The position numbers were made by a program, and so were the translations under genes. From positions 1-12,151 of IMG/VR virus record IMGVR_UViG_3300029343_000059: a stretch of 12,151 nt of DNA; one strand, 5' to 3'. The DNA is from a virus. Positions 1 to 12,151 of the stretch are shown in pieces; position 1 is the first letter of the stretch; every line of letters begins with the position of its first letter. The notes under the pieces are model-generated. The model did no database searches. It saw only the letters and a list, made by a program, of their open reading frames with translations, and had not been told where the DNA came from.

Positions 1-1387
1 GAATGACACGCACCATGTTGAATCCATAACTCTCGCACTCCTCACGCCAATACGTTGAAGACCAGCTGTCATAACCTATCCATGCAATCTGTATCCCATG
101 CACCTTGACCATTTCAACAAACCATGCTGTGACATCACTATAATTGATTGTATTGCCTTCACACAAACGCAACAAACCACGTTCACGCCATTTGTCATAT
201 GGGATTTTTTCTTCCTTCACACGTTCTTCAAATCGGTCAGCTGGAAGCCAATACATTTGCGTCACATGCCTTTGCATTGTGTTTTTGTCAATCATCAGCA
301 ATGTTGCACATGTCAAATCAGTTGTGCGGGATAAATCAGCACCGCCAATTGCATACACGCCCGCAAAATCATCAATGTTGAATGTGTCTTCATTGTTCAG
401 CGTGTCGAATGTTAGCCACGCACTTGACGTTGTTGACCGTATGTCAAAATCTTTGCACAATATTCCGTTCAAGTCCTTTGGATTCTGTTTTGCTCTTTCT
501 ACCTTTTCACGAATGTCAGACAATTTTTTGATTGTTCCAAGTGCTGGATTGGCTTTTGTCCATGCGTTCGGATTCTTCCATTCTTCTTTGCTGTCAAGTT
601 CGTATATTATTGGCAAAAAGCGTTCATCATGTATGATTCCGTCAACAATGTCACATGCGTATTTGTATAAGTCATCAAAAATTGATTCCCTTTTCGTTCC
701 AGCCGTGCTAATCATCAGCAACAACGGCTGTTGCCTTGCACTTTGTGATTGCTTGAGTACTTCATACAAACCACGGTCACATTCGTGCAATTCATCAATG
801 ACAATACAATGACCGTTCAATCCGTCCATGGTGTTATATTTTGCCCCTAATGGTTCAAACTTTGACATGGTAGCTGCGAAATATAAATCCGTTTTGCGCT
901 TCTTCAAATGCTTCCGCAAGTCGGGTGATTGTTTCACCATGTTCAAGCATTCATTGAAAATTATCTTGCTTTGTGCAAGTTTGGTGCTTGCACTGTATAC
1001 TTCCGCACCAGCTTCATTGTCAGCAATTAGCATGTATAACGCTATACCAGCAAGCATTGTTGATTTTCCATTTTTACGGGCAACCATGAACAAAGATTCA
1101 TTGTATTTTCGCAAGCCTGTTTCTTTATCTACAAAACCAAATAATGCTTGAATGTATGCTTTTTGAAACAATTCCAGCTTCACGGGTTTTCCTGCCCATT
1201 TGCCTTTGCTATGCTTGCAAAACCTTTCAATGAATTCAATCGGTTTTGTTCCCTTCTTTTCATCAAACACATATTGATTCGGGTGTTCAATGTCATGCAC
1301 TAATTTTTTATAAATCTTTCGGACACGTGTGCTTGTTACAATTTCACCAGCTTCAATTTTCTTTTGATATTCAATAACATAATTCAT
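1..1387 (-). CDS. terL: Terminase large subunit (TerL), 5' portion including the start codon. The gene continues across the circular join into 11782-12151. Total about 545 aa.
   Basis: Hand translation of the minus strand from ATG at 1387-1385 gives MNYVIEYQKKIEAGEIV...SLFMVARKNGKSTMLAGIALYML... This contains a Walker A (GKST). It also contains ...GHCIVIDELHECD (Walker B-like), ...VYAIGGADLSRTTDLT and ...IAWIGYDSWSS (RNaseH-like nuclease acidic motifs). The frame is continuous with track ORF 11782..12144, because positions 1-119 duplicate 12033-12151. The TerS stop (1392-1390) lies 2 nt upstream of this ATG. Confidence 0.9.
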   Translation of the reverse strand, partial: MNYVIEYQKKIEAGEIVTSTRVRKIYKKLVHDIEHPNQYVFDEKKGTKPIEFIERFCKHSKGKWAGKPVKLELFQKAYIQALFGFVDKETGLRKYNESLFMVARKNGKSTMLAGIALYMLIADNEAGAEVYSASTKLAQSKIIFNECLNMVKQSPDLRKHLKKRKTDLYFAATMSKFEPLGAKYNTMDGLNGHCIVIDELHECDRGLYEVLKQSQSARQQPLLLMISTAGTKRESIFDDLYKYACDIVDGIIHDERFLPIIYELDSKEEWKNPNAWTKANPALGTIKKLSDIREKVERAKQNPKDLNGILCKDFDIRSTTSSAWLTFDTLNNEDTFNIDDFAGVYAIGGADLSRTTDLTCATLLMIDKNTMQRHVTQMYWLPADRFEERVKEEKIPYDKWRERGLLRLCEGNTINYSDVTAWFVEMVKVHGIQIAWIGYDSWSSTYWREECESYGFNMVRVI

Positions 1388-1389
1388 TG

Positions 1390-1740
1390 CTACATATTGT
1401 CGTTTATAAAGTCCATTAACGGGTCATTTTCAATTGGTTGCGTGTCCTTTGGTAGTAAATCGCATAACTGTTTGTATAATGCGGAATACTGTTTGATTGT
1501 TGTGTTGTAGCTTTTCAATGCTGGTGATTCACGGAAAAAATCTTGCTTTCCTTGCTGGAAGTGTTCAATTGTTCCGTTTTCTTTCACATTTTCTTTCAGT
1601 TCAGCAAGGGTTGCTGTCATGAATGCAAGTTCATCAGCTATGTTTGAAGCTATTGCCTTTTTGTTGTCGGGTACCAGCTTCACAATTTGATTCAATTTTC
1701 TTTTTTCTGATTTTGTAATTTTATCTTTGTCAATTGTCAT
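1390..1740 (-). CDS. terS: Terminase small subunit (TerS), P27-like family, about 116 aa.
   Basis: MTIDKDKITKSEKRKLNQIVKLVPDNKKAIASNIADELAFMTATLAELKENVKENGTIEHFQQGKQDFFRESPALKSYNTTIKQYSALYKQLCDLLPK... Small helical protein placed between an HNH gene and TerL, the canonical cos-phage arrangement. Strong SD AAAGGTGA lies 5 nt upstream of ATG 1740-1738. The track's longer start at 1797 lacks an SD. The family call is from memory of P27-type TerS sequences. Confidence 0.65.
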   Translation of the reverse strand: MTIDKDKITKSEKRKLNQIVKLVPDNKKAIASNIADELAFMTATLAELKENVKENGTIEHFQQGKQDFFRESPALKSYNTTIKQYSALYKQLCDLLPKDTQPIENDPLMDFINDNM

Positions 1741-1797
1741 GCTATCACCTTTCAATCTTTCAATATTTATTGTAAACATGTATACAAGTATACCCAC

Positions 1798-2124
1798 CGT
1801 TCATGCAAAAACCTTCACGGGGGTTTTCTAATGTGGGGCGTTTGATTACTTTCCGCCTGCCCTGCCTTTTGGGTTGGGGCGGTATTAATTGCCATAGCTG
1901 TGCACTATAAATACCCAGCTAAACCGGATTGGGAGATATAAGGAAGAAATAGAAGAATTAATTTAATTTTGCTGTAAAGCGTCCGTGTGTATGCTTGCCT
2001 ATGAACTCACCGACGGCTGAAAGGACCGCATAGACTGCTCACCAGTCATAAGCAATCTATTAAAGTTCGGTTTGCATGAACACTTTCGCAAGTACCTATA
2101 GTGCACGGCTAAGGCAATTAATTG
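1798..2124. other. Candidate cos / packaging-recognition region: the HNH-TerS intergenic region, locally GC-rich with G/C tracts.
   Basis: This is the only sizeable gap inside the head operon and lies exactly between HNH and TerS, where HK97-like cos phages carry cos. G-runs on the plus strand: cacgggggtttt (1816-1827), tgtggggcgttt (1832-1843), ccgcctgccctgccttttgggttggggcgg (1853-1882). Confidence 0.4.
1884..2122. repeat. Inverted repeat of 26 bp (24/26 match) with arms at 1884-1909 and 2097-2122, enclosing 187 bp.
   Basis: Left arm attaattgccatagctgtgcactata. Right arm tatagtgcacggctaaggcaattaat, which is the reverse complement of the left arm with 2 mismatches. The right arm ends 2 nt from the HNH stop codon (2125-2127). 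Confidence 0.8.
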
Positions 2125-2415
2125 TTATAGCTTTACTAAATTGCCTTGATTGTCAAATATCAATCCCGCTTCTGTTACAGGTTTTTCCATATGCTCGTGT
2201 TGGTGACATGTCGCACACAATGCTTCGAGATTGTCCCATGAAAGCGTTATGTTTGGGTTGTTGATATTTGTCGGATTAATGTAGGTTTTGTGATGCACAA
2301 TGACGGCTGGCTTTCCACATCTCTCGCATACATAGTGTTTGCTTTGCATATATGCTTTTTGTGTGTCTCGCCATGCTTTTGACGCATAGAAACGTTTTGC
2401 GTATTCTTTCGCCAC
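2125..2415 (-). CDS. HNH endonuclease (zinc-finger HNH, terminase-associated).
   Basis: MAKEYAKRFYASKAWRDTQKAYMQSKHYVCERCGKPAVIVHHKTYINPTNINNPNITLSWDNLEALCATCHQHEH... The CxxC...HH...N...CxxCH architecture is classic HNH. GTG start at 2415 with SD GGGGAG upstream. Confidence 0.9.
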   Translation of the reverse strand: MAKEYAKRFYASKAWRDTQKAYMQSKHYVCERCGKPAVIVHHKTYINPTNINNPNITLSWDNLEALCATCHQHEHMEKPVTEAGLIFDNQGNLVKL

Positions 2416-2437
2416 TGTGCACCACTCCCCTTTTCAT

Positions 2438-2704
2438 TCAAATTTTTTTTATTGATATTGTCTTCAATAAGCTGTCAACGCTTCTTTGCATTCTTTCCGT
2501 GTCCACTTGCGTTGGGTCATACCATAAAGACAACAGAAATTTTTGTGCGGTTTCACACAAGGGACTTACGACTTGTTCAGCTTCAACAACGCCCGTTGTC
2601 AACTCTATGTATTCAACGGACGCTGTCAGCAATCCTTCAATGATTGGGTCATTGTCGGTGTTGTCTAATCTCAGCCATTCCCTTGCGGTTTCAAGCGTCA
2701 ACAT
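2438..2704 (-). CDS. gp6-like head-tail connector (DNA-packaging / head completion) protein.
   Basis: MLTLETAREWLRLDNTDNDPIIEGLLTASVEYIELTTGVVEAE... matches the conserved N-terminal pattern of gp6/SPP1 gp15-like connectors (L.L.E.K..LRID.D..D.LI..LI.AA..YI...TG). Its start overlaps the MCP stop (TAATG). Family recalled from memory. Confidence 0.7.
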   Translation of the reverse strand: MLTLETAREWLRLDNTDNDPIIEGLLTASVEYIELTTGVVEAEQVVSPLCETAQKFLLSLWYDPTQVDTERMQRSVDSLLKTISIKKI

Positions 2705-3930
2705 TATCCAGCTTTAACCGCAATTTTCACGAATGCTTCGGACACGATTGGTTTGCAATCCGCAATTGCTAGTCCTCTATAATCAACCTTGCCACTACGG
2801 AATGAAGATTGTGTTGAAGATTCAACAGCAATTCCAGCTGGAAGATTGTATCCCATATAATCAAAATTGCCGTAATAAATAACACCGTCAGCAATGTTGT
2901 CATCAATAACAACTTCATGTCCAAGAATGCTTCCAATGCTTTCTTTCTGTACATCAGCAAGGAAAATTGGACGCTTGTTTGTATCAACAATGTTATATGC
3001 ACCGTTGTATAATGTTGCACTATTCATTGCCCAAACTGCTTTCTTGTGGTATCCACGTTTAAGCATTGCCATTGCACTTGGGAAATTAGCATATGCAAGT
3101 GCATTTGTTTCAACAAGGTTTGTTCCAGCTGTCCAAGTAATTGTTTCAAGTCCGCTTCCCTGTCCTACGCCTGTACCATTTACAATACCGTCCGCAAGGC
3201 ATTCAAGAACACAATTGTTTAATTCGTCAACAAGATATGCTTCAAATGCGTCAATGCTCATGGTTTTAATTTTTGCACTTAGTGAGAAAATTTTGATAAT
3301 TTCATACCCATTGAATGCAACTTCAACAATCTGTGGAACGTCCGCTGCTGCGTCTTTTCCTTCAGTGTTCCAAGTTGCCTTGCTGGAAGGTGTACCAACG
3401 GGAATTGAAATATTGGAAGGCATTGCGAATGCTCTACAACGTGCAAGCAATCCACCTTCTTTTCTTGCCTTTGCAATAACTTCATTCAATGTTGCTGTTG
3501 GAAGCACAACAGCTGTGTTTGAACTCGTTGTGTAATTGTCCGCACGCTTTTCAATTTCCATTGCACGGTTCATTGCACGTGTTTCCGCACCGTTTAATTC
3601 TCTACCAAGTAAAGACTTGAAAAATGCACTTCTATATTCTTTTGACGCATACACATCACCCTTGACAGCTTCAACACTATCATTTGCCATGTTTAGACCT
3701 GTGATTGGATTCATGCTTCTTGCTTCACCTGTTTCACCTGTTGCATTTTCAGTTGCGTTTGCTTTTGCTTCGTTTAATCCTGTCAATTCAATGTTCATTG
3801 CTGTGATGTCAATGTCGGGGTCTGTTTCAATAATTGCTTTCATTTCTGTTGCACGCTTTTCCATTTCCGCAATGCTCTTTGTTCTGTAAAAATTAAATGC
3901 TTCCGCTACTGTTTTAAAGTTCATTTTCAT
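2704..3930 (-). CDS. Major capsid protein, HK97 fold, with an N-terminal delta/scaffolding region of about 100 aa.
   Basis: 408 aa, immediately after the prohead protease, with ATGA start/stop overlap at 3927-3930. The N-terminus is charged and coiled-coil-like (MKMNFKTVAEAFNFYRTKSIAEMEKRATEMKAIIETD...). No separate scaffold gene is present. SD AAGAAGG upstream. Confidence 0.85.
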   Translation of the reverse strand: MKMNFKTVAEAFNFYRTKSIAEMEKRATEMKAIIETDPDIDITAMNIELTGLNEAKANATENATGETGEARSMNPITGLNMANDSVEAVKGDVYASKEYRSAFFKSLLGRELNGAETRAMNRAMEIEKRADNYTTSSNTAVVLPTATLNEVIAKARKEGGLLARCRAFAMPSNISIPVGTPSSKATWNTEGKDAAADVPQIVEVAFNGYEIIKIFSLSAKIKTMSIDAFEAYLVDELNNCVLECLADGIVNGTGVGQGSGLETITWTAGTNLVETNALAYANFPSAMAMLKRGYHKKAVWAMNSATLYNGAYNIVDTNKRPIFLADVQKESIGSILGHEVVIDDNIADGVIYYGNFDYMGYNLPAGIAVESSTQSSFRSGKVDYRGLAIADCKPIVSEAFVKIAVKAG

Positions 3931-4577
3931 TTACCTTCTTTCATTAAAATTTTGTTGCACATGATTTTTAGATTCTGTTTTGCTCTGTATCTCTTTTTTT
4001 CAGCTTCAATTGCATTTCGTGATTCTACCGAAACACTTGTGCTTTCATACGCTGGAAACGGAACAATTGACACTTCATAGACCTTTGCAATTTTTGTGAT
4101 TGTTCTTGTGTTGGTCTTTGCGTCATAACTGTCCCCACCTTCGGGAATAGTGAATGCGAATGACATGCCCGTCAAATCGCCACGCTTTATTGCTTCATAT
4201 ACGCTTTTCCCGTCTTCGGTGTTTGGCAATTCCGCTGTCATTTCCAATGCCTTGTCTGTGACCGTGAATTGCATTGTTTTCGGTACTTTTGCAAGTGGAA
4301 CACGATTTGTTGAATGGTCGTATAACAAACGACTGTCCGACATGTCCGCACCTTCCAATGCACCTTTTTTGATAATTTCGATATAGTCCCCGTTTGGGTC
4401 ATGTATCGTTGTGGGAACATCAAAAACAATTGGCGTTCCCTTTATGTGTAAAGCTGTTTCATTTAATTCAGCTTGCACATTACTTGACCTTATTTCTTTC
4501 ATACTGTGACCGCCTTTCTTGCTGGTTTTCTTCATTGTGTCTTTTTTCGGTGCAATCACACTTTTCACATGGGTCAA
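3927..4577 (-). CDS. Prohead maturation protease, HK97 / S78 family.
   Basis: ...GTPIVFDVPTTIHDPNGDYIEIIKKGALEG...KVYEVSIVPFPAYESTSV... resembles HK97-type prohead serine proteases and sits in the conserved portal-protease-MCP order. The start at 4577 is TTG (the track shows M) with SD GGGTG. Internal ATG starts (MKKTSKK, MKEIRSS) are possible alternatives. Confidence 0.8.
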   Translation of the reverse strand: MTHVKSVIAPKKDTMKKTSKKGGHSMKEIRSSNVQAELNETALHIKGTPIVFDVPTTIHDPNGDYIEIIKKGALEGADMSDSRLLYDHSTNRVPLAKVPKTMQFTVTDKALEMTAELPNTEDGKSVYEAIKRGDLTGMSFAFTIPEGGDSYDAKTNTRTITKIAKVYEVSIVPFPAYESTSVSVESRNAIEAEKKRYRAKQNLKIMCNKILMKEGK

Positions 4578-4612
4578 GGTTGCACCCGCACAATGGACAT
4601 GTATAAAAATAA

Positions 4613-5818
4613 TTATGCCGTTTGTCCTTCATTTGTATTTCCTGTATCTGTTGCACCAGCGTTTGCAAGCTGGTATGCGTTCGCAATAGCTTTGTCAATG
4701 TAATTTAATGACACAATGCGTTTGTCACCGTCTTCAACGGCTGGAAGGTTTAATATTTCCATGCATTGATTGATTGTCAACAATCCCATTGGTGCAAGTT
4801 CCTTGATTATGTTCAATTTTGTTGCGTTGCTGGAATAAACCAAACGCCCACTATCAAACACAATTGAATTTCCAAATGCCCTTTCACGGTCATTGAAAAT
4901 CTTTCTTGTAAATTCCAATGACAATTGCAATGATAATGGTTCAATAACTGATTCATAAAAACTTGACCATTCGTCTTCGGTGTAGCTACTTGTCACAATT
5001 TTTTCTGTGATTCCAAGATATGAATAAATCTTGCCTTGCACCGTTTTCAGCTGTTCAGCGTCAATTGTTTGTGGTTTTGCTTCAATTGGTACATATTCCA
5101 TTTTGCTGTCAGTTGCCACAACACCACCGTTGTTTGAAATGTCCAAATATTCTTCCACAAACTTTTTTGAAGACTCTTTCAATTTGTCTTCATTCATGAT
5201 TTGTGTGTATTTTAAGATTCCACGAATGTTTGCATTGCTTTTGATTCCGTTCACAATGCCTTCGTCCATTGTTTGTGCAAGTGTCAATGCTGGTGCAACA
5301 GCGTCATTGCTGTCACCCAATAATTCATCACTATTGAAAAATCTTGAAATGTGTATCAAATCACGATATGCAAACACAAATGTTTTTCCATTACGGAAAC
5401 GGAATTCAACAAACAAATTTCCCTGTTCATCAGCAATGAAATTTGCTTGCGTTGCTGTGATTGGATATAAAGCAATTATGTTCCCGCTTCGGTCACGTTC
5501 TATGTATGCAAATGAATTGTTGTGAATGTAATAATGTGTGACCAACTTATACAAAAAGTTATATGCGGTCATGTATGGATTCGGTTGCACTTGCAACATT
5601 CTATTCAATCGGCTGTCCGTGAAGTCCTTTGTGTTTCCGTTTGACTTCACAACATGCATTCCTTTCAGCTTTCCAGCATTCCTTGCAATTGCGTCAATGC
5701 CTTGTCTATATAATGCATTGGTGTATGCATTCCCGTTCCAAGCTGTGAAGGGTGCAATGTCTGTGATAATTTTGCCCTTTGTCACTTCTTTTCTTCTTAA
5801 TCTGTCAAATAGACCCAT
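4613..5818 (-). CDS. Portal protein, HK97 family.
   Basis: 401 aa, first gene of the head operon, followed by protease and MCP. SD AAGGTG lies 6 nt upstream of ATG 5818-5816. Size and position are typical of HK97-type portals. Confidence 0.85.
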   Translation of the reverse strand: MGLFDRLRRKEVTKGKIITDIAPFTAWNGNAYTNALYRQGIDAIARNAGKLKGMHVVKSNGNTKDFTDSRLNRMLQVQPNPYMTAYNFLYKLVTHYYIHNNSFAYIERDRSGNIIALYPITATQANFIADEQGNLFVEFRFRNGKTFVFAYRDLIHISRFFNSDELLGDSNDAVAPALTLAQTMDEGIVNGIKSNANIRGILKYTQIMNEDKLKESSKKFVEEYLDISNNGGVVATDSKMEYVPIEAKPQTIDAEQLKTVQGKIYSYLGITEKIVTSSYTEDEWSSFYESVIEPLSLQLSLEFTRKIFNDRERAFGNSIVFDSGRLVYSSNATKLNIIKELAPMGLLTINQCMEILNLPAVEDGDKRIVSLNYIDKAIANAYQLANAGATDTGNTNEGQTA

Positions 5819-5829
5819 TCAATGCACCT

Positions 5830-6120
5830 TGCTTTCTTTCATTCTTTTTTGTTGTATTAAAATATTGCTTTATTGTTTACAGTAATTATAACACTTTTGT
5901 ATGCATTCAACAATCATATTTTTCTTTATTGCTTTAATGTTTACAATAATACAAAATAGCATTCCAGCTTTATTTCATAACATTCAATTGCATTCGTTTT
6001 TGGTCTTCCTGTTGTTATTCTCTATATAGTCTATTCTTGTATCTATATGTATTCCCTTTCTGTGGATATAAAGAATATAAAATATATATAAATATACGGA
6101 AAAAACAAAAAGTGCAAAAA
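5830..6120. other. AT-rich tract, a candidate DNA-unwinding element of the replication origin. It contains a DnaA-box-like 9-mer tgtggatat (6061-6069, 8/9 to TGTGGATAA).
   Basis: Long A/T runs (tatatataaatatacggaaaaaacaaaaagtgcaaaaaaatc) with no credible ORF on either strand. It lies immediately beside the tandem iterons. Confidence 0.45.
5885..5913 (-). promoter_or_regulatory. Candidate sigma70-type promoter for the head/packaging operon, with an extended -10.
   Basis: The minus strand reads TGTTATAAT (-10 TATAAT at 5890-5885 preceded by TG). The -35 is weak (TTGTTG, 17-nt spacing). It lies about 67 nt upstream of the portal ATG. Confidence 0.4.
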
Positions 6121-6164
6121 AATCAGTATTTATCGTGGTTTTCAGCACTTTGAAGCGAAAAAAT

Positions 6165-6230
6165 CATACCCACTTTGGCATGGTTTCATACCCACTTTGG
6201 CATGGTTTCATACCCACTTTGGCATGGTTT
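6165..6230. repeat. Three perfect tandem 22-bp direct repeats (iterons): catacccactttggcatggttt.
   Basis: Copies at 6165-6186, 6187-6208 and 6209-6230 are identical. They lie in the 1-kb intergenic region downstream of the prim-pol/rep genes, adjacent to the AT-rich tract. They are a candidate origin or centromere. Confidence 0.9.
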
Positions 6231-6741
6231 CGGCTTTTTGGTGGTCTAAGTTTCGTAAAACCATAAATACCTGTAGACTAGTCAAAAACGGCATTTTTTC
6301 CCGTGTTTATGCGGTAATTCGCATTTTTCCATTCATCACTTTTACATGGTTGCGTAATCACTTTTTTCCGGTTTCTAAATACAGACTTTTGAAGCAAAAA
6401 AAACAGTATTGCCATATTGGGCGTTTTTAGCCATTTTGAGCGTGTTTTGTGTGTTGGACGGTAAATTGTTCATGAAATGTGTTTGCGTGGCTCTACGGGG
6501 CAAATAAACACGTTCACGGGCATTCCAGCATGACTGTTTGATTATTCATGACAACATTTTGCAATCATGGTTCAATTTTCATGTTGTTTGGTGTCAATAT
6601 AAATCACAAATGCCCCTGTGACGCTCTCACGTGGCTTGTATTGGCTTTTGAATGTCTTAATGTACAATTTACCCATAAAGACAATAAAACCGTTCTACGG
6701 GCATTCTATGGCGTTTTACGGCATATTGTAAAAATAGGCAT

Positions 6742-6773
6742 AAAAAAAGCACACGCCAATTTTGCATGTGCTT
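6742..6773 (-). terminator. Candidate intrinsic terminator of the par/rep operon.
   Basis: On the minus-strand transcript: stem AAGCACA / loop of 13 nt / TGTGCTT, followed by UUUUUUU (plus-strand A7 at 6742-6748). Lies 30 nt after the stop of the 107-aa gene. Confidence 0.45.
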
Positions 6774-6804
6774 CATGTATTCTTCATGGTATATTTTATT
6801 GTTT

Positions 6805-7128
6805 CTAAATATTAAACTCTTTTCCAAATGCTACAGAAGCAATCACACGAAAGTCATGCTCCGCCCCATCAACAAAGAAGTCCCCATTTTCAAAACTGAA
6901 TAAAACACCATCAACATCAATTATTTTTCCGTCTTCATCATGCTTCATAATCAAGTATGTATCGTCTTTCTTGTCTTCAAAATGCTTATAAAAATCTTCG
7001 ATTTCTTCCCAGCTGCTAAAATCTTTAAATACTTTTTTCACTTCCACCTTGTTAACCGTGTTATTTGATTCGTCAACGATAACATAAGAATAAATGTCTA
7101 GATTGTTTGAATTTGTTTTTTTACTCAT
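6805..7128 (-). CDS. Hypothetical protein, 107 aa, acidic, last gene of the rep operon.
   Basis: MSKKTNSNNLDIYSYVIVDESNNTVNKVEVKKVFKDFSSWEEIEDFYKHFEDKKDD... SD AAGAAGG upstream of ATG 7128. Co-oriented with and 5 nt downstream of prim-pol. No family recognised. Confidence 0.55.
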   Translation of the reverse strand: MSKKTNSNNLDIYSYVIVDESNNTVNKVEVKKVFKDFSSWEEIEDFYKHFEDKKDDTYLIMKHDEDGKIIDVDGVLFSFENGDFFVDGAEHDFRVIASVAFGKEFNI

Positions 7129-7133
7129 TTTAT

Positions 7134-8078
7134 TTACCTTCTTTCTATGCTTTGAATGTATTTTGATAATGTTGGAATGTCGGAATACAATGCAACAGCT
7201 TTTCCAATGGTCATGCTTGCATAATCTTCACGCAACCATTTGTCACGGAACAATGCGGAATGCTTTATCATTTCAAAAATCATTTGCGGGTCATTATCGG
7301 TGTAAAATGCAAGATAATTGCACAATGCAATGTCCGCTTCGCTTTGTGATGTGTAATTGCTTGTGTTTCCTTCCCACAATGCTTTGATTTTGCCCCCGTT
7401 TTCACCTTTCAGCATAATTTCCAGCAATGTTTGCTGTTTTGTGGTCATTGGTTCAATGCTCTTTGTATCAACAAACAATGCTTGTGTCTTTTGTTCCAGC
7501 TTTTCAATGTATCGTTCATAAACTTTTCGCACTTGATACACGTGCGGTTTGATTTCTTTGCGGTCTTGATACACATTTCCCGTGATTGCAAAATATCTTC
7601 CACCCGTATACATTTCAATTTCGGGTTCTTTCTTTTTTCCGTCAACATTTCGTGTGTATCTGTGAAGCCTTGCAACGTCCAAATCAAATGCATTGCGGTT
7701 TCTATTCAATAACATGTCCCCTTTTACAATGATATGGAAGCCTTTTTTGCTTTGGCTGTATTCGGTGTAACTGTCCAGCATTTCAATAATTTCTTTTGCT
7801 TCGGTCAACACATTGCCTTTGCTGTCAATTACATTGTCAAGGTCAATTGCAATATAACCATGATTGAAGACAAAACCAGCACCAATGTATTTGCATTTTT
7901 TTATTGCTTGCATACAATCTTCAAATGTTGCCCATGTACTGGAAGCGTCTACCTTTGCGGGCATGTCTGTTTTTGCATTGTATGGTTGTTTCTTCGGTGC
8001 GTTCTTTGCAACCTTTCCCCAAACAACCCATTGTGCAAGGTCTTTCAATTCCTGTGGAATGTCTTTGTATTTCTTCAT
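7134..8078 (-). CDS. Bifunctional primase-polymerase (prim-pol N-terminal domain plus PriCT-like C-terminal domain). No helicase domain.
   Basis: Prim-pol motifs: GYIAIDLD (DxD), KKGFHIIV (G-x-H) and IEMYTGGRYFAITGN. The C-terminal ...SQSEADIALCNYLAFYTDNDPQMIFEMIKHSALFRDKW resembles the PriCT-type primase C-terminal domain. No Walker A/B anywhere in the protein. Its ATG overlaps the stop of the upstream 393-aa gene (ATGA). Confidence 0.75.
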   Translation of the reverse strand: MKKYKDIPQELKDLAQWVVWGKVAKNAPKKQPYNAKTDMPAKVDASSTWATFEDCMQAIKKCKYIGAGFVFNHGYIAIDLDNVIDSKGNVLTEAKEIIEMLDSYTEYSQSKKGFHIIVKGDMLLNRNRNAFDLDVARLHRYTRNVDGKKKEPEIEMYTGGRYFAITGNVYQDRKEIKPHVYQVRKVYERYIEKLEQKTQALFVDTKSIEPMTTKQQTLLEIMLKGENGGKIKALWEGNTSNYTSQSEADIALCNYLAFYTDNDPQMIFEMIKHSALFRDKWLREDYASMTIGKAVALYSDIPTLSKYIQSIERR

Positions 8079-9256
8079 TGTGTCTTTCCATCTCTTTTCA
8101 CAAAAATGTCAAAACCGTCCGTGCCTTCGGGTTTCCATTCAAACGATTCAATCATGTCATTTTCCATGAGATACACCAATTGTTTTTGCACGCTTTTCAA
8201 TGTGCGTGATTTCTTTTTTGCATAGCTTTGTTTTCTTTTATAATTTGCGGGTACAATGTCCGCATATTCCAGCAATTTATCAAATGAAATGTGATTGATT
8301 CTATTTGTATAAACTTTTTTGCCCTTCAATGCTCTGATTCTATTGAACAAATACACCTTGATTTTTCTATTTTCCACCGTGTCACGCATTGGTCCAAGCA
8401 AGAAATTTTGTTTTTCATCGTCAATGGTTGCAATCTGTCCAATAGTAAATGCATAATTCAATAATATTGGCGTTCCCCTAAATTCATAATAGTCAGAAAA
8501 TGTTCCATTGGCATTGCGTCCATACCAGCCCGCAACATCAACAAGATTTCCTTTTGTCTGTATTTTTCCAAGTTCGGGATACATGTGCAAAACTTCTTTC
8601 ACATCAAGTTCAATGAAGACTTTTGCCATTTTTCGTATGCTTTCGTCTTGTGCTTTCAATTGTTCGGGTTTTGGGTTTGCGTTCGGGGCTTGCATGATGA
8701 TTCTATACAATTGCACTGGTGTCAATTCTTTTTGACCCATTCGCAACGCATTCCCTATTCCCATTAGTACGGTAAAATCATACCCATTCAATTGAATATT
8801 TTCTTTTTGTGCTGTTTCCTGTATCTGTCTTTTGATTATATTCACGGCACGTGCTTTTCTGTCCGTGTTGAATTCTTTGCCACTTGTCAATGCTGGAAGC
8901 CATTTGTCAAAGGGTAAATCTTTATTGAACACCGTTTTGTTTGCATTGTCATACGGCACAATCAATGTTCCGTATTTTCCACGATTTGTTGCAATTTGTT
9001 TTGGTTTATTGATTTCTTGAAACGTTGCATTGCTTTGCAATATTTCGTCAAGTTCCTGTTGTATGATATCGTCATTTTTTGCTGTCATATCGGACGCATA
9101 AAAACATCCTTCATCATCTTCATCATTTGGAATGTCAATGTATCCTTTATCAATTGCGGTTGCTATGGTTTCAATTAGAATATTTCTTTTTTCGTTTGAG
9201 TCTTCAATGTTTGCAGTTTTGCTTGCTATGTATCTCAATATTTCTTCACCGTACAT
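8075..9256 (-). CDS. Hypothetical protein, 393 aa, translationally coupled to prim-pol. Possibly a replication initiator or origin-binding partner (inference).
   Basis: MYGEEILRYIASKTANIEDSNEKRNILIETIATAIDKGYIDIPNDEDDEG... Strong SD GGAAGGAAAGGG upstream. No nucleotide-binding motif and no family recognised from sequence alone. Confidence 0.7.
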   Translation of the reverse strand: MYGEEILRYIASKTANIEDSNEKRNILIETIATAIDKGYIDIPNDEDDEGCFYASDMTAKNDDIIQQELDEILQSNATFQEINKPKQIATNRGKYGTLIVPYDNANKTVFNKDLPFDKWLPALTSGKEFNTDRKARAVNIIKRQIQETAQKENIQLNGYDFTVLMGIGNALRMGQKELTPVQLYRIIMQAPNANPKPEQLKAQDESIRKMAKVFIELDVKEVLHMYPELGKIQTKGNLVDVAGWYGRNANGTFSDYYEFRGTPILLNYAFTIGQIATIDDEKQNFLLGPMRDTVENRKIKVYLFNRIRALKGKKVYTNRINHISFDKLLEYADIVPANYKRKQSYAKKKSRTLKSVQKQLVYLMENDMIESFEWKPEGTDGFDIFVKRDGKTQ

Positions 9257-9444
9257 TTCTGTCCCTTTCCTTCCAAGTATTCTTCAATTTGCTTTTCTGT
9301 GAAATACCAAACATACCCAATGCGGTTTCCTTTCAATGTCCCATCATCAACACGCCTTTTCACGGTCTTTGTTGAGCATTTGAACATGTTGGCAACTTCT
9401 TCAATGTCATAAATCTTCACATTATCAAGTTTAATCATGTTCAA
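9235..9444 (-). CDS. Small HTH DNA-binding protein of the excisionase/AlpA (HTH_17-like) family.
   Basis: ...KIYDIEEVANMFKCSTKTVKRRVDDGTLKGNRIGYVWYFTEKQIEEYLEG fits the Xis/AlpA-type HTH pattern (E.A..L.VS..TI.R....G.LP..KIG..WRF....I.E..). The track start at 9444 is TTG. ATG at 9438 (MIKLDNV...), 2 nt after the ParG stop, is the more likely start. Confidence 0.7.
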   Translation of the reverse strand: MNMIKLDNVKIYDIEEVANMFKCSTKTVKRRVDDGTLKGNRIGYVWYFTEKQIEEYLEGKGQKCTVKKY

Positions 9445-9716
9445 TCTTCCTTTCTTTTCGCAATGTCCTTGTCTTTCAAAAAGTCGGTCAAAATCATTTC
9501 AAGTGCTTCTTTCAAGGTCATGTTTTCATAGAATGCATAACCCTTTAATTGTTCAACAATTTCTTTATCAATGCGGAATGACACAACAGCTGTTGTTCCT
9601 TTTTCCGTTTTCTTGCGTCCACGCTTCTTTGTTTCCGTGCTTGCTGGTGTTTCATTGCTGGATATTAAAGAATCCGCAACGCTGTTTCCATTCATGTTGT
9701 ATTTTTTATTTGCCAT
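9441..9716 (-). CDS. ParG-like ribbon-helix-helix partition/regulatory protein: basic N-terminal tail plus RHH.
   Basis: MANKKYNMNGNSVADSLISSNETPASTETKKRGRKKTEKGTTAVVSFRIDKEIVEQLKGYAFYENMTLKEALEMILTDFLK. A disordered K/R-rich tail is followed by a beta-alpha-alpha (RHH) pattern. It overlaps the 3' end of ParA by 11 nt. This is the type-Ib arrangement (ParF/ParG-like). Confidence 0.55.
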   Translation of the reverse strand: MANKKYNMNGNSVADSLISSNETPASTETKKRGRKKTEKGTTAVVSFRIDKEIVEQLKGYAFYENMTLKEALEMILTDFLKDKDIAKRKED

Positions 9717-10479
9717 TTTGTTTTGTCTCCCTTCCTAAAATTTCAGACACAATGCCGTTGTAATCAATTGCACCGTTGCTTTTTGGGTCATATTCAAATA
9801 TGTCAACACCGTTGATTGGTGCTTCCGCAATAGCAACATTGTTTCGTATCTTTGTATTGAATACTTTTTGCGGGAATGCTTCTTCCAGCTTTGCAACAAT
9901 GTCTTTATGTAAATTTTTGCGGTTGTCATACATGGTTACAATAACGCCTGTAACGGCAATTGTTTTGTTTGTATATTTCTTTATCGTTTCAATTGTCTTT
10001 TTCAGTTCTACAATTCCCGACATTGCAAGGTATTCCGCTTGTGTTGGGATATAAACTTCATTGCATGCGGTCAATGCGTTGATTGTCAGCAATCCAAGTG
10101 ACGGTGTATTGTCTATCAAAATATAATCATATTCATTCATGATTGGTTGCAATGCTTCTTTCAAAACATATTCACGCCCCGTTTGGTCACTGATATTCTT
10201 TTCCGCAATGGTCAATCTTTGGTCTGTTGCTATCAAATCACAATTTGAAAGTTTGTTGATTGCTTCTTTTGCTTCACATTCACCCGTCATTACATCAAAC
10301 ATTGTGTATTTCAATGATTTTGCGTCAATTCCAAGTGAAATGGTCATACTTCCTTGCGGGTCAAAATCAACCAACAAAACACGCTTCCTGTTTCGTGCTA
10401 GTCCAACACCAATGTTGATTGTGCTTGTGGTTTTTCCAACACCGCCTTTTTGATTCACTATTGCAATAATTTTTGCCAT
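9706..10479 (-). CDS. parA: ParA/Soj-family partition ATPase (small, type Ib).
   Basis: MAKIIAIVNQKGGVGKTTSTINIGVGLAR...VLLVDFDPQGSMT... carries the deviant Walker A KGGVGKTT and a DxD motif. 257 aa, no N-terminal HTH. Confidence 0.9.
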   Translation of the reverse strand: MAKIIAIVNQKGGVGKTTSTINIGVGLARNRKRVLLVDFDPQGSMTISLGIDAKSLKYTMFDVMTGECEAKEAINKLSNCDLIATDQRLTIAEKNISDQTGREYVLKEALQPIMNEYDYILIDNTPSLGLLTINALTACNEVYIPTQAEYLAMSGIVELKKTIETIKKYTNKTIAVTGVIVTMYDNRKNLHKDIVAKLEEAFPQKVFNTKIRNNVAIAEAPINGVDIFEYDPKSNGAIDYNGIVSEILGRETKQNGK

Positions 10480-10512
10480 GTTCTTTTTTTCCTTTCCTAG
10501 CCTTTCATGTCC

Positions 10513-10809
10513 TTAAGAACATAAATTCTCTTTAATATCTTTACCCGTTAAATCTTTATATTTATTTTCTATTCTTTCTAGTTTCTCTTTTCTATCATTT
10601 GCCCACTGTTCAGCAAAATTGTGAAGTTCTTCAACATCTTCTATTGATTCATCTTCATTTAAACGACCTAGTGCCATATCAAGCGACATATAAGCAATTA
10701 GTTCCTCTGTTTTGTCAACTGTGTCTATGGCTTTATCATAATCCTTTTGATATGTTTCATATTCTCTAATTAATTTTTGAGTTTCCTTTGTTGTTTCCAT
10801 TTCTTTCAC
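10513..10809 (-). CDS. Hypothetical, strongly acidic, predicted all-helical protein of 98 aa.
   Basis: MKEMETTKETQKLIREYETYQKDYDKAIDTVDKTEELIAYMSLDMALGRLNEDESIEDVEELHNFAEQWANDRKEKLERIENKYKDL. About 30 D/E against about 18 K/R. Its ATG overlaps the stop of the upstream 68-aa gene. Confidence 0.5.
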   Translation of the reverse strand: MKEMETTKETQKLIREYETYQKDYDKAIDTVDKTEELIAYMSLDMALGRLNEDESIEDVEELHNFAEQWANDRKEKLERIENKYKDLTGKDIKENLCS

Positions 10810-11012
10810 CTTCTTTCTTCAATGTGTCCGTCCTTGCATACCTTCAAGAACAATTTTCCTGTTTCGTCTTCCAACGTGAATTCATTCGGGTGTGCTGGAC
10901 TATCTTGCACAATCACAATGTTGTTTTCGGGCATGAAGTTTTCTTCAATCCATGCTTCAATCTTTTTGTGGTAGTATTCCTCAATAGTTTTTGCACCTTT
11001 GATTGCTTTCAT
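10806..11012 (-). CDS. Hypothetical protein, 68 aa, first gene of the par/rep operon.
   Basis: MKAIKGAKTIEEYYHKKIEAWIEENFMPENNIVIVQDSPAHPNEFTLEDETGKLFLKVCKDGHIEERR. SD AGGTGG lies 9 nt upstream of ATG 11012. The promoter is about 70 nt upstream. Confidence 0.5.
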   Translation of the reverse strand: MKAIKGAKTIEEYYHKKIEAWIEENFMPENNIVIVQDSPAHPNEFTLEDETGKLFLKVCKDGHIEERR

Positions 11013-11079
11013 GTAAACATTCCACCTTTCTTTTTTTATTTCTTCATTGCATGTTTGCTTGTATGTTCTTGCATGTCCA

Positions 11080-11108
11080 TATTATAGACAATAACAAAAT
11101 AAATTGCA
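11080..11108 (-). promoter_or_regulatory. Candidate sigma70 promoter of the par/rep operon: -35 TTGCAA, 17-nt spacer, -10 TATAAT.
   Basis: The minus strand reads TTGCAA(11108-11103)-tttattttgttattgtc-TATAAT(11085-11080). The -10 is perfect and the -35 is 4/6. It lies about 70 nt upstream of the first gene of the operon. Confidence 0.55.
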
Positions 11109-11177
11109 ATAGGTTTCTGAAAATGTTGCTTTTTTTCTTTTTTGTTTACATGTTTACGCTAATAAATTAAACACAAT

Positions 11178-11224
11178 AAAAAAACACCCTTCATAAATGC
11201 GTTCTACGGCACTTTTTAAGGGTG
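11178..11224 (-). terminator. Candidate intrinsic terminator after the head-closure gene, ending the head/packaging operon.
   Basis: Minus-strand transcript: CACCCUU (stem), a loop of about 26 nt, AAGGGUG (stem), then UUUUUUU. The loop is unusually long, which lowers confidence. Confidence 0.35.
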
Positions 11225-11341
11225 GTTAATATAAATTATCATTTGAACACAAAAACGCCAAATAAGGGCATTTCTGTGCGTTCTGCGTGGTATTACAATT
11301 AATCTAGGTTGTATGGTAGTACATTTTCCATTTTTTCATGG

Positions 11342-11764
11342 TTATCTGAGTAAATATTTAATTTCAGTATAATCTGGATTTATTGGTAACTTACTAGGGT
11401 CATAAGGAATCATAGTGTTTATTTTATCCGTCGTAAGTCTGCAATATAGCACCAAATCCCTTTTATATCCTTCGTACGGGTCAACTCTGGTTACTTGGTA
11501 TAAAATCCCGTCGTAATATACATAATAGTCATTAGCGTAATTTGATAAGATTGCGTCTGTATAGTTGATTCTAAATAGACACTCTTCCTTTATTGCTGTT
11601 GTATTGCTTGCATAAAACAAACTTGCCGAAAGCTGTTTAAAATATGCCCAGACGTTATCCTGTGGGTGAATTGGCATATAAGCCTTTAGGTCGAAACCGT
11701 CTTCGTCCGTTGTCTCGATATACATGTATATCTTTATTTTTTTATCTTTCAATTTTGTTGACAT
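11342..11764 (-). CDS. Head closure / head-tail joining protein (SPP1 gp16-like family).
   Basis: The C-terminal half ...ECLFRINYTDAILSNYANDYYVYYDGILYQVTRVDPYEGYKRDLVLYCRL matches the conserved pattern of phage head-closure proteins (..h.I.hRY......ph.Y.gp.a.I..V......p.E.pL.C.E). Its start lies 17 nt after the TerL stop, with SD AGGTGG. Confidence 0.6.
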   Translation of the reverse strand: MSTKLKDKKIKIYMYIETTDEDGFDLKAYMPIHPQDNVWAYFKQLSASLFYASNTTAIKEECLFRINYTDAILSNYANDYYVYYDGILYQVTRVDPYEGYKRDLVLYCRLTTDKINTMIPYDPSKLPINPDYTEIKYLLR

Positions 11765-11781
11765 GTAAACATTCCACCTTT

Positions 11782-12151
11782 CTATAATGCATTTATGTAT
11801 TCATTATATCTTTCGTGTAAAACAACATATGCGTCCAGCAATGACGCAAAACCGTCAATGCGTTGTTTTGCCCCGTTTGCCTTTGTTGGGACAATATTGC
11901 CGTTGCGGTCTTCAACACATTTCACATTTGTCATGCACCATTTCAAAATCGGGTTGTTGTTATAGTTTATTTTTTTAGCTTCCAAATCAGCACCCAAATG
12001 TTGCATTGGCAATGACAATGTCTTTGCACCTTGAATGACACGCACCATGTTGAATCCATAACTCTCGCACTCCTCACGCCAATACGTTGAAGACCAGCTG
12101 TCATAACCTATCCATGCAATCTGTATCCCATGCACCTTGACCATTTCAACA
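11782..12151 (-). CDS. terL: Terminase large subunit, 3' (C-terminal nuclease) portion. Same gene as 1..1387, across the circular join.
   Basis: Track ORF MVKVHGIQIAWIGYDSWSSTYWREECESYGFNMVRV...HERYNEYINAL. The M shown is internal, since there is no stop upstream before the window edge. In-frame with the minus-strand ORF at 1-1387 (codon phase checked: 112 and 1387 are both 1 mod 3). Confidence 0.9.
   Translation of the reverse strand, partial: VEMVKVHGIQIAWIGYDSWSSTYWREECESYGFNMVRVIQGAKTLSLPMQHLGADLEAKKINYNNNPILKWCMTNVKCVEDRNGNIVPTKANGAKQRIDGFASLLDAYVVLHERYNEYINAL
12033..12151. repeat. 119-nt exact duplicate of positions 1-119. This is a wrap-around of a circular contig (period 12,032 bp).
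   Basis: Both copies read gaatgacacgcaccatgttgaatccataactctcgcactcctcacgccaatacgttgaagaccagctgtcataacc...ccatttcaaca. The duplicate lies inside the TerL coding sequence, so it is not a regulatory repeat. Confidence 0.9.

Follow-up and report, generated by a model that had tools for sequence, protein, structure and literature searches.

How an element with genes for its own capsid is inherited when it carries neither tail genes nor an integrase is the question raised by a stretch of viral DNA of 12,151 nucleotides, IMG/VR record IMGVR_UViG_3300029343_000059 (positions 1 to 12,151, one strand, 5' to 3'; hereafter the window). Bases 1-119 are an exact copy of bases 12033-12151, defining a circular unit of 12,032 bp, as a preliminary description made from the sequence had held; the closure is not arbitrary, because a 545-amino-acid large terminase subunit (TerL), with both of its Pfam domains present, reads in frame through the 12032/1 join. 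We favor, at a probability of roughly 0.7, the view that the window is a complete capsid-forming phage satellite kept as a plasmid, functionally a cf-PISP (a class taken up below), in which a partition module has replaced the integration module. The circle and its gene content are confirmed. The preliminary description had likewise seen in this DNA a tail-less, partitioned episome that makes its own capsid, and all computational tests agree with it; episomal maintenance, helper dependence and packaging are what we infer from them.

A head module joined to a partition pair

Family assignments were made by Pfam, PHROG and NCBIfam profile searches of the window's proteins. These return a full HK97-type head and packaging set (portal, prohead protease, major capsid protein, gp6-like adaptor, head-closure protein, HNH endonuclease and TerL), together with ParA, an HTH_17 protein and a primase-polymerase (prim-pol), each of which had been named in the preliminary description. 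The capsid domain of the major capsid protein begins at residue 140, and the region N-terminal to it is delta-like, in keeping with the delta domain proposed earlier. No tail, baseplate, lysis or recombinase/integrase family was matched by any open reading frame (ORF) on either strand, which bears out the absence of such genes noted at the outset. Every credible gene lies on the minus strand, and the circle is organized as two co-directional transcription units (Table 1). The head/packaging unit runs from portal through protease, HK97 capsid, adaptor, HNH, a conserved non-coding stretch, small terminase subunit (TerS) and TerL to head closure. The maintenance/replication unit comprises orf68, orf98, ParA, a ribbon-helix-helix (RHH) protein, HTH_17, a Rep-fold initiator, prim-pol, orf107 and a terminator, beyond which lies an origin with five phased 22-bp iterons and an AT-rich stretch. 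Purifying selection acts on the head genes, whose ratios of nonsynonymous to synonymous substitution rates (dN/dS) fall between 0.1 and 0.33.

ParA (257 amino acids) matches AAA_31 (E = 1e-55) and phrog_164 (E = 2.7e-63) and aligns over its full length with solved ParA/Soj structures, its best solved relatives, placing the KGGVGKT motif at residues 11-17. Judged by its sequence the protein is clearly functional, because its dN/dS of 0.05 against the two closest relatives indicates strong purifying selection and because the Walker A motif is intact in 48 of 55 ParAs of the family. The 3' end of parA is overlapped by the gene for a 91-amino-acid protein whose family occurs in 57 related loci and whose alignment displays an N-terminal tail, basic and variable, ahead of a strand-helix-helix pattern. 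PHROG places this protein among Arc-like proteins (E = 3.5e-5), and a profile of the family finds SvtR (E = 0.0017), with the omega repressor of pSM19035 at a non-significant E of ~0.6. These matches give moderate support to an RHH fold and make the protein a candidate centromere-binding partner and repressor of the ParG or omega type.

With the RHH fold supported to that degree, the layout of the two genes reads as a type Ib partition system. Such systems (ParF/ParG of TP228, delta/omega of pSM19035) likewise combine a small ParA that lacks an N-terminal DNA-binding domain with a downstream small protein whose N-terminus is basic and flexible and whose C-terminus carries the RHH domain, whereas by sequence the window's ParA is nearer to Soj-type ParAs. 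The type Ib pair of the preliminary description stands as regards ParA, which is a small AAA_31 protein with KGGVGKT and without a helix-turn-helix (HTH) domain; its partner is ParG/omega-like in layout, but the scores are weak.

Plasmid, excised island or assembly product

We gathered 173 related loci by means of the capsid protein, grouped their ORFs into clusters and gave these Pfam labels. Among them, 50 near-complete relatives bear ParA, nearly always together with the RHH and HTH_17 genes; their contigs have a median length of 12.5 kb, 24 of the 50 end in exact terminal overlaps, and none has non-element or chromosomal flanks (one member of this set, the 15.5-kb contig L019, was looked at in part). 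Relatives that instead combine a homologous head module with a large serine recombinase or a tyrosine integrase lie in contigs longer than 16 kb in 14 of 30 cases, extending to 199 kb, with groEL, RNase R, dnaX or hsdM in the flanks of the islands. This difference (0/50 versus 14/30; Fisher p = 9.6e-8) persists when contigs from IMG/VR, which may have been trimmed, are set aside (0/34 versus 10/13; p = 5.5e-8). The episome reading is well supported because of this contrast in chromosomal context; an integrase or chromosomal DNA in the flanks, which the preliminary description had regarded as the sign of an excised island or a misassembly, accompanies none of the 50 ParA-type relatives.

Several points weigh against plasmid upkeep. 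An integrase-bearing relative with a serine recombinase, L162, is also a circular contig, so circular contigs alone are no proof of a plasmid state, and the source samples may represent a virome or particle fraction or a whole community. Seven near-complete relatives (L104, L110, L009, L018, L108, L113 and L106) have neither ParA nor an integrase, which makes ParA dispensable in the family. A centromere site was sought and none was identified, and the sequence scores behind the RHH and TerS assignments are weak. The preliminary description had suggested looking for a co-occurring helper phage; a search of INPHARED with the head-closure protein detected no homologue in any phage and so gave no helper candidate. 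The support as a whole is comparative and drawn from sequence.

The circularity of L162 and the possible virome origin of the samples also fit the most serious alternative, in which the circle is a passing state, through excision, replication or packaging, of an island that integrates by a host recombinase (XerCD, on which IMEX elements depend) or by that of a helper. The window moreover retains an HTH protein of the excisionase family, but integrated relatives that possess an integrase have HTH_17 as well, as their AlpA-type regulator. A dedicated Rep with an iteron origin and the strong selection on ParA are not what such a form predicts, nor is the absence of chromosomal flanks from all 50 ParA-type elements when 14 of 30 integrase-type elements in the same kinds of assemblies have them. 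We therefore hold an excised island to be unlikely.

Still less probable is that the window is the decaying remnant of a phage-plasmid, a cryptic plasmid that has lost tail and lysis genes and no longer forms particles. Bacillota do harbor full-size phage-plasmids with ParA, such as 32-36 kb Clostridioides difficile plasmids whose capsid genes are distantly related to the window's. Decay, however, is hard to reconcile with a gene set, gene order and size of 12-14 kb common to more than 50 elements whose capsids are only 54-65% identical, or with the purifying selection on the head genes; and integrated sister elements share this tail-less module, as do known cf-PICIs (phage-inducible chromosomal islands that form capsids).

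The search for related circles proposed in the preliminary description found 27 related contigs with exact terminal overlaps, all of 11.7-14.3 kb and from independent assemblies with differing k-mer sizes. This bears on a marginally weaker alternative yet, in which the circle derives from a larger phage genome, as a fragment or by mistaken circularization, or is a single segment of a multipartite phage that keeps its tail genes on another replicon. Short-read assemblers can close circles at repeats, and two contigs of the family are element-element chimeras, but closure within this size range in 27 assemblies, the intact TerL over the join and the absence of any relative joined to tail genes make a fragment improbable. 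The least credible alternative is a tail-less virus able to infect on its own, with no helper, since the retained portal, adaptor and SPP1-gp16-type stopper are tail-docking parts, no lysis or receptor-binding candidate is present, and cf-PICIs with the same module need helper tails in experiments (10.1101/2022.09.08.507074), against which stand only the element's fully own head and packaging genes and three small unassigned ORFs.

The two chimeric contigs, L001 (24.5 kb) and L003 (21.5 kb), are the only ParA-type contigs longer than 16 kb; each is a head-to-tail join of two different family members, every copy having its own ParA and the two copies differing in their replication modules. Assembly may have merged variants resident together, or the joins may be true cointegrates. 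The relatives without ParA or integrase form a sub-clade of complete elements of 11.7-12.3 kb, two of them circular, that retain the RHH and HTH_17 genes; such elements might persist through a high copy number or live by a purely lytic satellite cycle. One contig of this ParA-less group, 15.9 kb long, runs back into its own start at 85% identity.

A neighbor-joining tree of the capsid proteins, computed without support values, gathers the ParA-type elements into two large groups, with others falling among the tyrosine-integrase elements, a pattern suggesting that modules have been exchanged repeatedly. What the window swapped out appears, from gene order, in an island of Lentibacillus sp. N15 (L007, 93-14570). 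This tyrosine-integrase, cf-PICI-like element lies directly downstream of groEL and reads groEL, int, a cI-like repressor, HTH_17, a prim-pol-helicase, portal and so on to TerL and head closure, with a capsid protein 52-53% identical to that of the window. By clustering, an element of Alkalibacillus silvisoli (L008) has the same gene content. In contigs of 38-199 kb, six further loci (L167, L171, L155-L157 and L169) are human-gut chromosomal islands of ~13 kb with RNase R or dnaX in their flanks. They combine a homologous head module, again tail-less, with a large serine recombinase and a sigma-70-like gene, and some also have an HK97-gp10-like gene; by content they are cf-PICI-like islands that use a serine recombinase.

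Five ParA-type members additionally carry a tyrosine recombinase of 182-279 amino acids, located between HNH and TerS in the three layouts inspected. In these elements (L060, at 6388-6960; L082; L088; also L089 and L076) the protein is short, mostly 182-190 amino acids, and consists of the catalytic domain only. The ParA circles that bear it measure 13.6-14.3 kb, and in the inspected layouts the gene adjoins the presumed cos region. This short recombinase may be a dimer resolvase and recalls the one reported within the head module of the Vibrio cf-PISP.

Replication origin and operator-like repeats

The gene orf393, overlooked in the preliminary description, appears to supply the plasmid-type replication initiator of the element. 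Profile searches gave it no Pfam, PHROG, NCBIfam or PDB sequence match, and a full HMMER scan found 139 representative relatives. A confident AlphaFold model built from a 67-sequence alignment with 66 relatives (pLDDT 86.7, pTM 0.76) gives orf393 the predicted fold of an iteron-type plasmid Rep initiator, resembling RctB domains 2-3, RepE, pi and RepA, although with known iteron initiators it has no detectable sequence similarity or common Pfam membership. An earlier model from a shallow 25-sequence alignment (pLDDT 59), with which a fold search gave no usable match, is superseded. Downstream, the prim-pol matches the NrS-1 helix-bundle domain (E = 7.5e-17) and phrog_1829 (E = 5e-69), as expected from its earlier description. 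Classical iteron plasmids resemble the window in their adjacent, directly repeated 22-bp iterons and AT-rich stretch, but lack the prim-pol with which Rep is paired here.

The iteron/AT-rich origin claimed for the window is equally well borne out. The core AACC-N5-AAAGTG occurs in five exact copies on one strand with 22-bp phasing, ~1.7 kb downstream of orf393 and adjoining the GC minimum of the window; counting copies with one mismatch, there are 9 where 1.5 are expected, a number reached in 0 of 200 shuffles. At least 13 relatives with the orf393/prim-pol module have arrays of three 21-22-bp repeats at the same location, with a common core and variant flanks, whereas relatives with a different replication protein of 558 amino acids have unrelated repeats of 31-68 bp. 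Between the window and the 95%-identical L094 (at ~11.3-11.4 kb there), the same two adjacent iteron bases differ (CC versus TA) in all three copies, indicating that the array evolved in concert. Across relatives, the repeats thus behave like iterons that co-vary with the replication module. A GAATGCCCGT(A)GAACG-like motif in the same part of the circle and beyond (6501-6525, 6682-6706 and ~11200) was dropped, its three copies against 1.1 expected being reached in 19 of 200 shuffles. A 54-amino-acid hydrophobic ORF at 5984-6148 (minus strand) falls within the AT-rich origin region; neither a homologue among the related loci nor a family match was found for it, and it is probably neither a gene nor a holin.

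A second repeat, TGTAAACA, occurs six times in the window against 1.3 expected, including 5874-5881, 5938-5945 and 11143-11150 on the minus strand. On the coding strands of 50 ParA-type elements it is found 92 times against 19.6 expected (4.7-fold), whereas integrase-type relatives are not enriched. The copies cluster upstream of both portal and TerS, as well as downstream of the head-closure gene, and such positions at the starts of transcription units fit an operator as well as a centromere; from its distribution, TGTAAACA is probably an operator/promoter element of a family-specific regulator. The HTH_17 protein, a profile match (E = 3e-10) that agrees with the AlpA/Xis-type HTH named in the preliminary description, is likely a transcription regulator.

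Packaging would begin at the spacer between HNH and TerS, a likely cos or terminase recognition region, whose DNA is conserved in the equivalent region of 50 relatives. An ORF called here in many relatives (cluster 14) is not accepted as a gene: the homologous stretch of the window holds stops, for which reason the spacer is taken as conserved non-coding DNA. The ORF that follows is a probable small terminase, whose scores are weak and whose position fits: Terminase_4 is matched at 17.9 bits (cutoff 24.7), phrog_1066 at E = 2e-35 and phrog_2343 at E = 2e-4, the gene is found in 124 related loci, and its place directly upstream of TerL is conserved. Of the P27-like TerS proposed earlier, the position ahead of TerL holds, and the family call, below the Terminase_4 cutoff, is weak.

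In the life cycle that these parts suggest, Rep would bind the iterons and open the AT-rich DNA, prim-pol would prime with host replisome proteins, and ParA with the RHH protein would segregate the copies, giving vertical inheritance. A helper phage would switch on the head operon, perhaps via the HTH_17 regulator and the TGTAAACA sites before the transcription units; the element would then build its own small procapsids, TerS, TerL and HNH would cut the DNA into 12-kb unit lengths and package it, with adaptor and stopper closing the head. Helper tails of siphovirus type would attach and helper lysis would free the particles, so that a helper is probably needed for tails and lysis only.

Relation to described satellites, and further features

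The preliminary description had supposed that this combination was undescribed, a premise overtaken by TG54 of Vibrio crassostreae, an extrachromosomal circle of 15.8 kb that combines head genes of cf-PICI type with parA and repA and has neither tail genes nor an integrase (PMC13230959). Its class was named cf-PISP, with relatives that the authors found only in Vibrio (PMC13230959; preprint 10.1101/2025.10.10.681744, October 2025; Nat Commun April 2026); our literature search found no further paper using the concept. Both TG54 and the window (12.0 kb) are small extrachromosomal circles with cf-PICI-type head and packaging genes, HNH and terminases, with parA and a replication initiator and without tail genes or an integrase, and a dual life as plasmid and satellite has been proposed for TG54. 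For the window, the extrachromosomal circle is seen at the assembly level, and parA is accompanied by a Rep-fold initiator with iterons. The two nonetheless differ. TG54 has repA, ProQ/FinO and an Stl-like regulator where the window has prim-pol, the Rep-fold protein and an HTH_17/RHH pair. A small recombinase inside the head/packaging module is common to TG54 and some of the window's relatives, lying between portal and head-tail adapter in the former and between HNH and TerS in the latter. By its description, the TG54 capsid groups with gammaproteobacterial cf-PICIs, whereas the nearest integrated relatives of the window are from Bacillaceae; and where TG54 has relatives only in Vibrio, the window's family is widespread in human-gut and fermenter metagenomes. 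No Vibrio is among the 39 PLSDB records that match the window's major capsid protein. Set apart from TG54 as the latter is described, the family appears to be a lineage independent of the Vibrio cf-PISP.

The authors of SatelliteFinder reported 969 cf-PICIs, "all but three in chromosomes", and integrases as core to all satellites (PMC10085698); a 2025 review knew of a single plasmid satellite, that of an inovirus (PMC12282955). With cf-PICIs (EcCIEDL933 and those of Firmicutes; SatelliteFinder model, PMC10085698) the window has 10 of 11 core components in common, namely the alpA-type regulator, primase/replication, capsid, protease, portal, adaptor, connector, HNH, a probable terS and terL, and like them it has no tail or holin genes. 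It departs from them in lacking an integrase, a cI/Stl-type repressor and a chromosomal location, having ParA, the RHH protein and a Rep/iteron origin instead, and since it has neither the integrase nor the chromosomal setting it is not a cf-PICI.

Phage-plasmids of the P1, N15 and SSU5 types resemble the window in plasmid replication and partition and in capsid-borne spread, but they are several times its size and encode whole virions, tails included, along with lysis genes; lacking tail and lysis genes, the window is not a phage-plasmid. The capsid proteins of the 32-36 kb C. difficile plasmid prophages are only 25-29% identical to its own. Closer in size is the plasmid state of P4, a satellite of ~12 kb that can persist as a plasmid and relies on a helper for parts of its virion. 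Unlike the window, P4 encodes an integrase but no capsid, portal or terminase; its capsids are built from the helper's protein and resized by Sid.

The window is probably from a Bacillota host, to judge by its strong Shine-Dalgarno-like sequences, its GC content of 37% and its nearest capsid relatives, which are Bacillaceae islands, followed at a distance by clostridial and Butyrivibrio phage capsids. Exact look-up of the capsid protein gave no record, and its best match among PLSDB plasmids and INPHARED phages does not exceed 32% identity, so that no cultured relative is at hand. ParA, searched against the same two collections, gave generic matches of ~40-49% identity that do not indicate a host. 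ParAs with 41-42% identity to that of the window occur in several human fecal MT83xxxx records of 10-14 kb, filed as 'Bacteriophage sp.'. Two of these, MT836188.1 and MT836017.1 (12-14 kb), were rejected as relatives, their similar ParA being the only gene in common with the window.

Taken with these comparisons, the balance tips slightly toward the window representing the first recognized lineage of capsid-forming satellite-plasmids outside Vibrio, a large family, probably of Bacillota and common in the human gut, in which ParA-RHH pairs, tyrosine integrases and serine recombinases have repeatedly been swapped on one head/packaging chassis, with some members having none of them. If so, "island" and "plasmid" would be interchangeable lifestyles of satellites rather than separate classes, satellite-plasmids would be a general strategy that tools keyed to integrases and chromosomal context miss, and small gut-metagenome circles labelled "viral" or "plasmid" could be both. 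The family also offers a natural comparison, the same head module with ParA or with an integrase, for asking what drives the choice between plasmid and island.

Table 1. Features of the window, in order of position.
Feature	Position	Strand	Remarks
Terminal overlap	1..119	.	Same as 12033-12151; marks the circular 12,032-bp unit
TerL, 5' part	1..1387	-	Start at 1387; continues over the join to 11782; 545 aa
Probable TerS	1390..1797	-	Listed start GTG 1797; ATG ~1740 likelier
HNH-TerS spacer	1798..2124	-	Non-coding; 31-nt inverted repeat 1884-1914 / 2092-2122
HNH endonuclease, packaging accessory	2125..2415	-	PF01844, E = 1.1e-8
gp6-like head-tail connector/adaptor	2438..2704	-	PF05135, E = 3.2e-6
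HK97-type major capsid protein	2704..3930	-	PF05065, E = 9e-32, residues 140-403
Prohead serine protease S78	3927..4577	-	PF04586, E = 1.2e-28
Portal	4613..5818	-	PF04860, E = 6.6e-55
Region ahead of head operon	5855..5951	-	Two copies of a repeat containing TGTAAACA; candidate operator/promoter
AT-rich stretch	6050..6130	.	Adjoins iterons; candidate DNA-unwinding element
Iterons	6164..6231	-	Three perfect 22-bp tandem copies, GAAACCATGCCAAAGTGGGTAT on the coding strand
Further iterons	6337..6373	-	Two copies, 22 bp apart
Terminator-like hairpin	6746..6774	-	11-bp stem, then T run; closes maintenance/replication operon
orf107	6805..7128	-	No matches
AEP-type prim-pol	7134..8078	-	NrS-1 helix-bundle domain; no helicase domain
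orf393, replication initiator candidate	8075..9256	-	Predicted tandem winged-helix fold of iteron-binding Rep
HTH_17 (AlpA/excisionase-type)	9235..9444	-	E = 3e-10; DNA-binding protein
RHH-type protein, 91 aa	9441..9716	-	Basic flexible N-terminus, C-terminal ribbon-helix-helix
ParA/Soj-type partition ATPase	9706..10479	-	Deviant Walker A KGGVGKT; no N-terminal HTH
orf98	10513..10809	-	Function unassigned; within variable accessory region
orf68	10806..11012	-	Function unassigned; opens maintenance operon
Intergenic control region	11013..11341	-	Promoter-like site 11109-11081; GTAAACATGTAAACA repeat ~11140-11155
Head completion/closure, SPP1 gp16 type	11342..11764	-	PF05521; TIGR01563 above cutoff
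TerL, 3' part	11782..12032	-	TerL_ATPase E = 1.9e-30, TerL_nuclease E = 8.8e-37 (whole protein)

For the S78 protease, the ATG at 4502 is the likelier start, giving 191 amino acids compared with ~192 in relatives. Promoter and terminator scans of the window gave overall counts not above shuffled expectation, and single sites at operon boundaries are accordingly weak evidence. A scan of the whole window with Rfam at E <= 0.1 returned no RNA family. Searches of Pfam, PHROG and NCBIfam gave no family match for orf68, orf98 or orf107, and PADLOC found no defence system among the small ORFs without assignment.

Two segments, 10497-10812 around orf98 and 11217-11597 from the head-closure gene to orf68, are unalignable with the 95%-identical L094; another relative, L095, aligns over 11217-11597 and not over 10497-10812. 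The family's variable slot for accessory genes lies between the head-closure gene and parA, where other members have a 350-amino-acid DUF7659 protein and DUF3846.

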